Source: Parcubacteria group bacterium Gr01-1014_56 (lineage in GTDB: Bacteria > Patescibacteriota > Minisyncoccia > Phycocordibacterales > SBAW01). From it: DNA of 43,043 nt. A model generated the notes under the pieces. That model was given only the letters and a program-made list of their open reading frames with translations, was not told the DNA's origin and did no database searches. This document shows, piece by piece, positions 3,077-13,861 of the stretch. Where the stretch lies: positions 1 to 43,043 of the forward strand of contig VMFK01000001.1 in assembly GCA_007375995.1 (NCBI GenBank), in the 5' to 3' direction. Numbering within the stretch: the first letter of the stretch is position 1; each line of letters opens with the position of its first letter. The position numbers and the translations under genes are program-made.

Positions 3077-3149
3077 TGCGCGATAGAGGACTCGAACCTC
3101 TGACCCTCCCCACGTCAAGGGGATGCTCTACCAACTGAGCTAACCGCGC
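3077..3149 (-). tRNA. tRNA-Val (anticodon GAC)
   Basis: Acceptor GCGCGGT/ATCGCGC, D arm AGCTCAGTTGGTAGAGC, anticodon loop TTGACGT, T arm AGAGG-TTCGAGT-CCTCT. Confidence 0.85.
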
Positions 3150-3197
3150 GTGTTCAAAACAATAGCAAAAACAACGATTCTGCGCTATACCAACAGT

Positions 3198-4238
3198 ATG
3201 AAAGTGCTTGCGATAGAAACCTCCTGCGACGAGACAGGAATAGCGATTGTTGAGGGAGAAAAGATTTCTGACGGTTTTTCTTTTACTGTGCATAAAAACG
3301 TCTTGCTCTCCCAAGCGGCTCTCCACGCAGAGTTTGGGGGTGTATACCCCAATCTCGCTAAGCGCGAACATCAAAAAAACCTCCCTGTTTTATATGAGCA
3401 GTTTAAAGATGAGGTGGTGGATGCGATCGCAGTTACTCAAGGCCCTGGGCTTGAGCCTGCGCTGTGGACCGGTATCGAATTTGCAAAAAAAGTTGCAGCC
3501 GAGCGCGGCGTGCCGCTCCTCCCTACTAATCATATGGAAGGGCATTTAATTTCTTCTCTAGTACAAAATGGAAAACTCGAGAAAGTTGAGTTGCCTGTGC
3601 TTGCACTCCTTGTCTCCGGCGGACACACAGAGTTTGTTTTAATGGAGAGCTGGTTTAAGTATGAAGTTATCGGCGAGACGCTTGACGACGCTGTGGGCGA
3701 AGCGTTCGATAAAGTTGCGCGTATGCTTGGCTTGGCTTACCCTGGGGGCCCCGAGATTTCCAAATACGCCTCCCAAGCCCGTGAGCAAGGTTTAACCTTG
3801 CTCAAAACACTACCGCGGCCAATGCTCAGGTCGGACAATTGTGATGTCTCGTTCTCTGGCCTCAAAACCGCGGCACTCTACGCACTGCGCGGAAAAGAAT
3901 TATCTGAAGATGAGAAAAAAGCCTTCGCACGTGAGTTTGAGGACGCGGTCACAGAAGTATTTTTAGTAAAAACAAAACGTGCGCTTGAGGAGACAGACGC
4001 AAAAACGTTTGTCATCGGCGGAGGAGTTGCCGCAAATACTTATTTGAGAGAAAAACTGAAGGCGGTCGTTAAATCTGCGTTTGCTGAAGTAGACTTTCTC
4101 CTCCCTGAACGTTCGATAACTGGCGACAATGCGATCATGATCGCTGAAGCCGCACTCGCTCGCCGTCTCTCCGGACTTGACGACTCCGACCAGGGAGATT
4201 TCCGCGCTGTTGGAAATCTCTCAATAGAAAAAGATTGA
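3198..4238 (+). CDS. tsaD: tRNA N6-adenosine threonylcarbamoyltransferase TsaD
   Basis: MKVLAIETSCDETGIAIV, HMEGH and LVSGGHT motifs. The ATG at 3198 is chosen because the GTG at 3150 abuts tRNA-Val (3077-3149). TGA stop at 4236-4238. Confidence 0.9.
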   Translation: MKVLAIETSCDETGIAIVEGEKISDGFSFTVHKNVLLSQAALHAEFGGVYPNLAKREHQKNLPVLYEQFKDEVVDAIAVTQGPGLEPALWTGIEFAKKVAAERGVPLLPTNHMEGHLISSLVQNGKLEKVELPVLALLVSGGHTEFVLMESWFKYEVIGETLDDAVGEAFDKVARMLGLAYPGGPEISKYASQAREQGLTLLKTLPRPMLRSDNCDVSFSGLKTAALYALRGKELSEDEKKAFAREFEDAVTEVFLVKTKRALEETDAKTFVIGGGVAANTYLREKLKAVVKSAFAEVDFLLPERSITGDNAIMIAEAALARRLSGLDDSDQGDFRAVGNLSIEKD

Positions 4239-9940: not shown

Positions 9941-10453
9941 ATGGCGCGCGACAAAAAATCCTTATTTACTTGGCTAACCGGCGGTGGCGTCGAGCAAGAT
10001 TACTCTTTCGATGACTTAGAGAGCGGCCCGGGGTTTCTGCCGCCGCGCTCTACACAAAAGCGCTCTGCCTCACCCGCGCGTGAGCGAGAAGAGCAGGAAA
10101 CAAGCGCTATTGAGGAGGCCGTGGAGGGCGAGCTTTCTGTCGACGTGTATCAAACCCCTACTCATATAGTAATTAAGGCCATGATCGCCGGGGTTAGGCC
10201 TGAGGACCTCGACGTCTCTATCACCCGCGACATGGTCACGATCCGCGGCAAGCGCGAGCAACACACCGAAGGCTCCACGGGCGACTTTTTCTTTCAGGAG
10301 CTTTATTGGGGCTCTTTTAGCCGCACGGTTGTGCTCCCCCAGGAGGTAGAGATAGAAGAAGCCGAGGCTGTAGAGAAGCACGGCCTCCTCGTGATCCGCC
10401 TCCCCAAAATGGACAAAAGCCGCCAAGCAAAACTCAAAGTCAGATCAAACTAA
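9941..10453 (+). CDS. Hsp20/alpha-crystallin small heat-shock protein
   Basis: The alpha-crystallin domain runs from LSVDVYQTPTHIVIKAMIAGVRPEDLDVSI through GSFSRTVVLP to GLLVIRLPK. Confidence 0.85.
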   Translation: MARDKKSLFTWLTGGGVEQDYSFDDLESGPGFLPPRSTQKRSASPAREREEQETSAIEEAVEGELSVDVYQTPTHIVIKAMIAGVRPEDLDVSITRDMVTIRGKREQHTEGSTGDFFFQELYWGSFSRTVVLPQEVEIEEAEAVEKHGLLVIRLPKMDKSRQAKLKVRSN

Positions 10454-12034: not shown

Positions 12035-13861
12035 TTATTCGCTCTTCACCATCTTGAGGAAGACGTCTTCGGGTATATTGACCCGACCCCGCTCTTTCAT
12101 TTTTGCCTTCCCCTCCTTTTGTTTCTTCCAGAGCTTCATTTTGCGTGTCCGGTCGCCTCCATACATATGTTGGGTCACGTTTTTACTCATTGCAGGAAGG
12201 GTTCTTGAGGAGATAATCCGACCGAGCGCCACTCCCTGGATTTTGGTAGCAAACATCTGCCGCGGCAAAATCCCGTATAGTTTTTCAACCGCGGCAATTG
12301 CCTCTTCGTCTACACGATGCTTCGCGACAATACGAGAGAACGCGGGCACCATTCCGTCCGCAACAAGGATATCAAGCCGTGCTACGTCAGCAGGCCGGAG
12401 CTCACGCAACTCGTAGGAGATAGAAGCATAGCCCTGGGAGACGCTTTTCATCTTGTCGAAGAAGTTGCGCATCAATTCTCTCAGCGGCATCATAACTCGT
12501 ATCATCATCCGCCCTTCTGAAAAGACATCGGTCGACTGGGCGGTGGCCTCATGCTCAAACAAAAGTGGCGTCACGCTGCCCAAAAGATGTGCGGGGAGAA
12601 TTATTTCGGCTGATACAAACGGTTCCCACACATGGACGATTTCGTTATAGGGAGGAAAAGCTGAAGGAGAATAAACGGTGCGACGCTGTCCAGTACTTGT
12701 TTCCACTTCATACGTAATAGTGGGAGTAGTTACTACAAGCGAGAGATTAAATTCGCGCTTCAAACGCTCGGTGATTATCTCAAGGTGGAGCATCCCGAGT
12801 AGCCCGCAGCGAAAACCTCTCCCGAGCATGCCAGAAGCCTCTTCTTCAAACGAGAGCGAGGAATCAGAAAGTCTTAGGCGCGAGAGTGACTGCTTAAGTG
12901 CGGTGAAATCGTCTTGCGACTCAGGGTAGACACTCGCCCACACTACCGGCTTGGGTTCTGCATAGCCGGAGAGCGGCAGGGTACTAGAGCCTCTCCTGCG
13001 TATCGTATCTCCTACGCGAGCAACTCCTGGCTCTTTGATGCCGGTCACGATGTAGCCGATAGAGCCGAGACCTAGCTCGGGCGCAGGAGTAGGTTTGGGA
13101 GAAAAAGTTCCGACCTCAAGCGCACTGAACCTACGCCCGCTTGCGGCAAACTCCAACGTGTCTCCTTTTTTTATACTGCCGCCAAACATGCGTAGGTACA
13201 CAATGACTCCTTGGTGGTCGGAGTATTGAAAATCAAAAATAAGAGCCTGCGGCTCTGCAGACAAAACAGTGGTAGGCGGCGGCACGCGCTCGATAACTGC
13301 GTGCAGGAGTTCCTCGACCCCTTCCCCCGTTCTACCAGAACATAAAAGAATATCGCTCTCAGGAATCTCGAGCAACGCTCCGACTTGTGTCTTCACTCCC
13401 TTTATATCAGCGAGTGGCGAATCAATTTTAGAAATCGCAGGGATTATCACAAGCCCAAGCTCGCGTGCACTCCTAAGCGTCGTGAGTGTTTGTGCTTGCA
13501 CACCCTGTGTCGCGTCCACAAGTAAAATAGTTCCTTCAACAGCGGTGAGTGCGCGCGAAACTTCGTAAGAGAAGTCGATATGCCCTGGCGTATCTATTAA
13601 ATTTAATTCATAGGTACTGTTAGCAAGGTTCGACCTTGCTGGGTCCAGCAAGGTCGAACCTTGCTGCGGATTCCAAAGCATTCTAACGGGCTGCATTTTG
13701 ATCGTGATCCCACGCTCGCGCTCAAGCTCCATAGAGTCGAGCACCTGCTCGCGCATTTTTCGCTTTTCTATGGTGCCCGTTGACTCAAGAAACCGGTCAG
13801 CAAGAGTGGACTTGCCGTGGTCAATGTGGGCAATAATGGAGAAATTTCTGATGTGTTGCAT
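12035..13861 (-). CDS. lepA: Elongation factor 4 (LepA)
   Basis: IRNFSIIAHIDHGKSTLADR, LIDTPGHIDF and C-terminal YGGDRTRKMKLWKKQKEGKAKMK, collinear with LepA throughout. Confidence 0.92.
   Translation of the reverse strand: MQHIRNFSIIAHIDHGKSTLADRFLESTGTIEKRKMREQVLDSMELERERGITIKMQPVRMLWNPQQGSTLLDPARSNLANSTYELNLIDTPGHIDFSYEVSRALTAVEGTILLVDATQGVQAQTLTTLRSARELGLVIIPAISKIDSPLADIKGVKTQVGALLEIPESDILLCSGRTGEGVEELLHAVIERVPPPTTVLSAEPQALIFDFQYSDHQGVIVYLRMFGGSIKKGDTLEFAASGRRFSALEVGTFSPKPTPAPELGLGSIGYIVTGIKEPGVARVGDTIRRRGSSTLPLSGYAEPKPVVWASVYPESQDDFTALKQSLSRLRLSDSSLSFEEEASGMLGRGFRCGLLGMLHLEIITERLKREFNLSLVVTTPTITYEVETSTGQRRTVYSPSAFPPYNEIVHVWEPFVSAEIILPAHLLGSVTPLLFEHEATAQSTDVFSEGRMMIRVMMPLRELMRNFFDKMKSVSQGYASISYELRELRPADVARLDILVADGMVPAFSRIVAKHRVDEEAIAAVEKLYGILPRQMFATKIQGVALGRIISSRTLPAMSKNVTQHMYGGDRTRKMKLWKKQKEGKAKMKERGRVNIPEDVFLKMVKSE
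13622..13665. repeat. Perfect 21-bp inverted repeat with a 2-nt centre, inside lepA
   Basis: AGCAAGGTTCGACCTTGCTGG-gt-CCAGCAAGGTCGAACCTTGCT. Each arm is itself hairpin-capable (AGCAAGG-TTCGA-CCTTGCT). Confidence 0.9.

Follow-up and report, generated by a model that had tools for sequence, protein, structure and literature searches.

The lepA gene of Parcubacteria group bacterium Gr01-1014_56 carries, in frame, a perfect nested palindrome that is very probably a REPIN (a repetitive extragenic palindromic, or REP, doublet forming a hairpin): two inverted 21-nt REPs of subfamily A belonging to a REP-RAYT (REPtron) system, in which RAYT stands for REP-associated tyrosine transposase. The gene lies in a stretch of 43,043 nucleotides (hereafter the window; contig VMFK01000001.1, positions 1 to 43,043 of the forward strand). 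The assignment is made because the repeat family is dispersed through the genome, its variants flank RAYT-like genes of their own and doublets occur in other genes. The host is a groundwater member of the Patescibacteria with a small genome (0.66 Mb; assembly, hereafter G000, of 661 kb in 53 contigs, 49.6% GC), and its homologues carry names that indicate Patescibacteria/Paceibacterota. The locus is laid out as follows, in positions of the window.

12035-13861, minus strand: lepA (elongation factor 4), host gene of the insert, a 608-aa open reading frame (ORF) with the Pfam set given below and a match to Aquifex LepA.
13622-13666, minus strand: probable in-frame REPIN of 45 nt, encoding QQGSTLLDPARSNLA (LepA residues 66-80); two inverted 21-nt subfamily-A REP units with GAC+C between them.
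13646-13666, minus strand: first REP unit on the coding strand, CAGCAAGGT-TCG-ACCTTGCTG, with a 9-bp stem and a 3-nt loop.
13622-13642, minus strand: second REP unit on the coding strand, inverted, CCAGCAAGGT-CGA-ACCTTGCT, from hairpin and stem-variant comparison.

The palindrome arms (13622-13642 and 13645-13665) are 21 nt each, 100% complementary and separated by a 2-nt GT spacer. Each arm is itself a small hairpin with an 8-9 bp stem and a 3-nt loop, TCG in one and CGA in the other (AGCAAGGT-TCG-ACCTTGCT at 13622-13640; CAGCAAGGT-CGA-ACCTTGCTG at 13646-13666). Arm and hairpin searches agree here with an earlier note on this DNA, which had described a 44-nt nested palindrome with mismatch-free 21-bp arms, each a hairpin. 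Allowing up to three mismatches, the arm search returned only these two sites in the window and none in 100 shuffles. With base 13666 added, the 44 nt become 45 nt (13622-13666), or 15 in-frame lepA codons, and on the minus strand these read exactly the peptide that the note had given. The doublet can adopt two alternative folds, one 20-bp hairpin or two small hairpins, which match the “hairpin” and “clover” forms discussed in the paper that defined REPINs (Bertels and Rainey, 2011, PMC3116915). Its predicted folding energy is -25.1 kcal/mol as single-stranded DNA and, for the mRNA segment, -39.3 kcal/mol (z = -8.3), in keeping with the suggestion of a strong mRNA hairpin. The whole 45-nt doublet is free of stop codons in all six frames. 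A transcription terminator was ruled out as a reading of the palindrome, there being no T-run and the element being intragenic, as was the tRNA T-arm likeness of GGTTCGA, given the 3-nt loop and the lack of tRNA context.

By its sequence matches the host ORF is LepA/EF4, a translational GTPase with a LepA C-terminal domain. GTP_EFTU, EFG_III, EFG_C and LepA_C score above the Pfam cut-off, GTP_EFTU_D2 reaches 24.2 bits under a 30.3-bit cut-off, and the N-terminus matches Aquifex LepA in the PDB (2YWE, E=3.9e-39).

The palindrome is one member of a dispersed family. The 13-mer core AAGGT(TCG/CGA)ACCTT occurs 26 times at up to one mismatch in the 661 kb, on 14 contigs, where our own estimate of the chance expectation is about 0.02. 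The exact 15-mer is present 19 times in this genome and, in smaller numbers, in 18 of the 60 other genus genomes, and a reversed control pattern gave 0 matches in G000 and in all genus genomes searched. The 21-nt palindromic unit is therefore dispersed and over-represented, as expected of a REP. A count of copies across the genome, which the earlier note had recommended, places them both between and within genes, with at least 10 units in ORFs (lepA, uvrA, a comM-like gene, recG and two RAYT genes), the cases in short ORFs being uncertain. Perfect hairpins with these loops have two main stem variants. Variant A (CAGCAAGGT-loop-ACCTTGCTG) is found twice in lepA, five times on C31 and on C47 and C49, and variant B (CTTCAAGGT-loop-ACCTTGAAG) four times on C25 and on C32, C38, C42, C44 and C52; a third variant, CCCGAGGT-loop-ACCTCGGG, has one copy, on C44. 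The A unit is stop-free in six frames, and the B unit has stops in two. There are five inverted doublets, always in the order TCG unit then CGA unit, with starts 25-29 nt apart. No shared target motif is obvious in the doublet flanks, as judged by eye only. Also by eye only, the spacers of variant-B doublets contain a GGGCTC/GAGCCC motif in either orientation (G000 C38:3805-3853, C49:11185-11234 and C42:3797-3841; doublets of the genus genomes G017, G003 and G076). Because these spacers share the motif, it seems that the doublet of about 48 nt is copied as a whole rather than as a single unit. A further doublet, at C20:11070-11145, lies within a longer palindrome of about 70 nt (flanks AATATCTGG ... 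CCCAGATATT).

Which enzyme could serve such a family? Searching the whole genome with PF01797 (Y1_Tnp) yields three matches that exceed the Pfam cut-off, and the sole NCBIfam match of the three proteins is NF047646, REP-associated tyrosine transposase. The HUH motif (NHFH/NHWH) and the tyrosine motif (YIHLNP/YVERNP) are visible in the translations.

C31:258-962 (L003): RAYT-like gene, with variant A units at 134, 225, 428, 941 and 1323.
C25:10221-10904 (L002): RAYT-like gene, with variant B units at 10278 and 10884; a further, degenerate copy lies inside it at 10399.
C10:1322-2051 (L001): RAYT-like gene, the best NF047646 match, at 73 bits.

Around the C31 gene, A units stand upstream at 134 and 225 and downstream at 1323; the unit at 428 is inside the gene, in frame, and reads KSQQGRTLLE, and that at 941 covers its last codons (ARSNLA, then stop). 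The degenerate in-frame copy of the C25 gene (NAGRTLKE) is at the position homologous to the C31 internal copy. Both genes are flanked by their cognate variant in inverted orientation, TCG at 134 and CGA at 941 on C31, TCG at 10278 and CGA at 10884 on C25. Each of these two stem variants of a dispersed repeat, A and B, therefore both flanks a RAYT-like Y1/HUH gene and sits in frame inside it. The 21-mer CAGCAAGGT-TCG/CGA-ACCTTGCTG of lepA has the same letters as the units at C31:225-245, just upstream of the C31 gene, and C31:428-450, inside it. Of the 60 other genus genomes, 34 encode homologues of the C31 protein, often in several copies, and a RAYT homologue is present in nine of the ten that have at least two copies of the 15-mer, a co-occurrence that is supportive only, as related genomes are not independent. 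The internal copies of the C31 and C25 genes lie just before the HUH motif, and in both genes a further copy overlaps or adjoins the stop codon. In place of REP hairpins, the C10 gene has a 27-nt inverted repeat (85% complementary) on its flanks, a layout like the “TIRYT” arrangement described in the available part of Di Nocera et al. (2013, PMC3733652).

Other genes carry the units in frame as well. The uvrA gene contains a doublet at C38:3805-3853 (LQGSTLKPGSKRSNLSI), and in alignment this insert is missing from most relatives. A Mg-chelatase/ComM-like gene has one at C42:3797-3841 (PQGSTLKSPELRSNLK), and REP doublets are also found in the comM-like linker of the genus genomes G017 and G003. 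A single unit in a recG-like helicase gene (C32) reads SSRSNLEG. Among relatives, in-frame units occur in a 222-aa candidate holB-like ORF (G010), in a cysteine-desulfurase-like ORF (G076) and, in G061, in mnmA and a uracil-DNA glycosylase gene. A B unit at C52:17526-17546 reads LQGSTLK in the apparent leader peptide of a prepilin-like protein (MKALLSGKNLQGSTLKRGVSTLEILIAF...) that has no Pfam match.

In LepA itself, the interval from PVRM to LNLIDTPGH spans 24 residues here and 6-15 (mostly 6 or 10) in 20 of 22 LepAs of the genus. The insert is missing from those 20, and together with the 26 core units this bears out the proposal that a palindromic element was inserted in frame. The note had held that an insertion would be refuted if the genome contained no second copy and all relatives had a homologous, non-palindromic loop, which is not what is seen. 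Among the genus LepAs, G020 has an interval of 46 residues, reached by tandem duplication of 23 codons (locus L040, G020:C52; VRMLWHPNRAE.SEVP.E..EGQ). No near-identical LepA allele is present in a collection of 5.8 billion proteins, where the next best have 86-89% identity; the closest homologue, P0007 (89%), has a 10-residue loop. Mapping onto EF4 structures, another check that had been proposed, places the insert at a 13-residue gap relative to the Aquifex and Thermus proteins, between the switch-I and DTPGH strands. Modelled by AlphaFold2 (mean pLDDT 80.4), residues 64-83 form an irregular connection between strands 57-63 and 84-90, with low confidence for residues 71-80 (mean pLDDT 54). 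Because the model puts the insert between these strands, it is, as modelled, an extension of the β2-β3 turn of the G domain. The protein remains intact, with 15 codons, no stop and a complete domain architecture.

The same loop is filled in other lineages. Several of the best 120 LepA homologues, inspected for loop content, have REP-like doublets or units at this site; identities are to the query over residues 1-220.

P0002 (L049), 86%: variant A stems, TTA loops; same nucleotide position and same 15-nt upstream flank.
P0004 (L050), 81%: CCCGAGGT variant, perfect 21-bp arms.
P0005 (L051), 80%: variant B, perfect 20-bp arms.
P0008 (L052), 76%: variant A, longer spacer.
P0009 (L053), 82% (89% of the region covered): decayed TTA/TAA doublet.
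P0049 (L054), 75%: single B unit.

Across lineages the loop thus shows four stem variants (A, B, CCCGAGGT and the TTA-loop form) and many empty states. When the loop columns are left out of the LepA trees, REP-carrying proteins are scattered among short-loop rows. A single origin of the REP-bearing LepAs is rejected by the approximately unbiased (AU) test for nine carriers together (p=2.8e-10), as is the grouping of four carriers in the nearer clade (p=6.6e-5), the tested group having been defined by the loop feature after a first tree had been viewed. The state of this one site has changed repeatedly and involved different variants; tree and AU test are indifferent to gain versus loss.

Comparison with L049 adds a second point. 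The two lepA genes share 75.7% nucleotide identity, and only 44.5% of codons for the same residue are identical, yet 35 of 35 doublet stem bases are identical. The same 35-position mask at 1693 other lepA offsets gives a maximum of 34 and a mean of 26, none reaching 35. The doublets differ in the two loop triplets and the spacer only, and the loop changes are nearly complementary between the arms. Because the stems are identical and the loops have changed in this paired manner, homogenisation or replacement by family copies is a better fit than drift in a loop under no constraint as protein. Other peptide motifs (SNGSGPAQ, P-E-R-S-E-G-Q and RRAPS...EGALL) recur in the same LepA loop on scattered branches (P0003, P0035, P0047, P0012, P0022, P0026, P0028 and others; loci L009 and L040). 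SNGSGPAQ and PERSEGQ are not dispersed repeats, each being found only in lepA (in G016 and G020), and for that reason the REP mechanism does not explain them; recombination between lepA alleles is one possibility for such motifs.

How might the element have reached lepA? We infer, by analogy, that the doublet is mobile. Its hairpins would form on single-stranded DNA and be recognised by RAYT-like enzymes, the doublet being the moving unit as proposed for REPINs (PMC3116915), and a RAYT-like enzyme would place it in lepA by chemistry of the IS200/IS605 type. The lepA insertion would predate the split of G000 and its 86%-identical relative (L049). In essential genes, insertions may survive only if they are in frame, free of stops and in a tolerant surface loop, selection removing the rest, and the 45 nt, we infer, are translated as a floppy loop extension. 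Later, conversion or replacement from other family copies, and not selection on the peptide, would have maintained the uniformity of the stems as DNA.

Several findings weigh against the identification as a REPIN of a REP-RAYT system. There is no GTAG/CGTC tag, and when positions are counted over 25 oriented units, no conservation is seen outside the symmetric 21-nt palindrome. The roughly 26 copies fall short of the more than 100 given for classical REPs in the available part of Nunvar (2010, PMC2817692), and the family is not mainly extragenic. All three transposase candidates stay below the equivalog cut-off of NF047646 (45, 42 and 73 bits versus 80), phmmer finds no PDB match for the C31 protein, and the C25 gene lacks about 55 N-terminal residues. 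At the insertion site, removal of the 15 residues leaves a loop of 9, neither 6 nor 10, so the claim that it restores a normal length is only approximately right; given this remainder, lepA did not simply gain a clean 45 nt on top of a known ancestral loop. Finally, a REP-related hairpin elsewhere in the window shows that such hairpins can also arise with no change in length.

3782-3804, plus strand: REP-related hairpin in tsaD (ORF 3144-4238), 23 nt, perfect, TGAGCAAGGT-TTA-ACCTTGCTCA, reading EQGLTLL.

At these codons three orthologues have unrelated residues over the same length, and the length of the protein is unchanged.

The tsaD hairpin lends some weight to an account in which the lepA loop, and those of uvrA and comM, are old resident sites rewritten or converted in place by the current REP family, the patchy distribution then being due to repeated loss and family switching. 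The coordinated change of loop triplets between G000 and L049 (TCG to TTA; CGA to TAA-like) on identical stems would fit, as would the presence of different REP variants in the same loop of different lineages. But the lepA loop exceeds that of 20 of 22 genus relatives and that of the nearest homologue by 14-18 residues, so that length was gained at some point, and the phylogenetic tests take no side between gain and loss. We consider a resident site possible but doubtful. Held with similar reserve, as a tentative extension of the REPIN reading, is the idea that the β2-β3 turn of LepA and the similar UvrA and ComM loops form a repeated landing pad, in which different REPIN variants were installed or swapped independently at least four to five times among related Patescibacteria and then held uniform as DNA. 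If true, it would imply site-directed targeting, or templated in-place replacement by which RAYT-like enzymes rewrite codons of essential genes; the latter is hinted at because the tsaD copy leaves the length unchanged.

Could the repeat be a miniature element or hairpin repeat moved by another enzyme, or by replication slippage, with RAYT proximity incidental? In its favour, there is no GTAG/CGTC tag, and five of the 18 genus genomes with the 15-mer lack a RAYT match at E<=1e-15. Yet two stem variants each flank a RAYT paralogue of their own and each is also inside it at the homologous position, the 15-mer and RAYT homologues co-occur as described, and terminal inverted repeats with target duplications, as in ordinary miniature inverted-repeat transposable elements, are not present. 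This alternative is improbable. Still less credit can be given to a hairpin kept for the sake of lepA, as a translational pause, an mRNA-stability element or a functional peptide loop. The mRNA hairpin is indeed very stable, its stem bases are conserved above any other pattern in the gene and the same loop is filled in several lineages, but these units are also found intergenically, within different genes and in different reading frames, the majority of genus LepAs lack the insert, and the peptide varies between lineages while the palindromic form is kept. A DNA uptake sequence or other protein-binding motif, which would likewise be short, over-represented and often in inverted pairs, can be given almost no credence at about one copy per 25 kb with units clustered round transposase genes, and an assembly artefact is ruled out, as independent assemblies of other projects carry palindromes at the same lepA site.

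Work by Ton-Hoang from 2012 is reportedly among the references for the REPIN-RAYT, or REPtron, system. The REPIN reading places the Patescibacteria family beside the systems of Nunvar (2010, PMC2817692, as far as its available part goes) and Bertels and Rainey (2011, PMC3116915), with which it shares a dispersed short hairpin repeat, inverted doublets that fold in two ways, Y1/HUH genes flanked by their own repeat variant and several variant-specific transposase genes per genome. It differs in its perfect, untagged 21-nt palindromes, low copy number and large in-gene share, in doublets of 44-49 nt versus 71 nt between unit starts in Pseudomonas fluorescens SBW25, in units in frame inside the transposase genes and in its 0.66-Mb Patescibacteria host. 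The IS200/IS605 elements and their palindrome-associated derivatives belong to the same transposase superfamily (PF01797) and have a presumed single-stranded DNA hairpin as substrate; unlike them, the present family has no subterminal left and right ends with guide sequence and no tnpB, the mobile unit being the hairpin doublet only.

The closest precedent is the survey of intragenic REPs by Di Nocera et al. (2013, PMC3733652), the available part of which describes single and dimeric REPs in frame within ORFs that add short peptides. Dimers encode 20-30 residues and more than half of the insertions consist of dimers or groups; repair genes, including uvrA, are frequent hosts, and in Xanthomonas recB different REPs occupy about the same site. 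In-frame singles and dimers, uvrA as a host and different variants at one site all recur here. The REPs described in that part of the paper carry GTAG or CGTC tags, unlike those here, their hosts are Proteobacteria, Opitutus and Rickettsia, and lepA is not named among the host genes there; nor does it follow different variants in one loop over a tree. The kind of event is thus already known, while the lineage is new in print; among the papers listed by a literature search, none mentions Patescibacteria, or the candidate phyla radiation (CPR), together with RAYT.

Rickettsia palindromic elements (RPEs) of the RPE-1 type are roughly 100-150 bp long and restricted to Rickettsia. To our knowledge they have no linked transposase. 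The earlier note had likened the lepA palindrome to these elements, and in behaviour the likeness stands, both being palindromic repeats in frame in essential genes and translated as an extra surface segment. Membership of the RPE family does not: the element is 45 nt long, its host belongs to the Patescibacteria and it is a REP doublet tied to RAYT-like genes, the distinction resting on size, host and transposase linkage.

A streamlined genome of 0.66 Mb would, on the REPIN reading, tolerate a hairpin-repeat and transposase system that adds 7-16 residues to essential translation and repair proteins. The lepA site could serve as a natural series for the gain, loss and uniformity of REPINs and for stem recognition by RAYT-like enzymes, and for annotation the family would account for odd loop extensions such as QGSTL...RSNL in Patescibacteria proteins. 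Most worth further work are the one LepA loop repeatedly filled by different variants and the rewriting case in tsaD. In the genus genomes G004, G007, G017, G020, G022 and G023 the LepA match breaks in two at about query residue 198-203 while the reading frame stays open, which indicates, from the alignments, a second in-frame insertion of about 12-34 residues (about 21 in G017) at the end of the domain.

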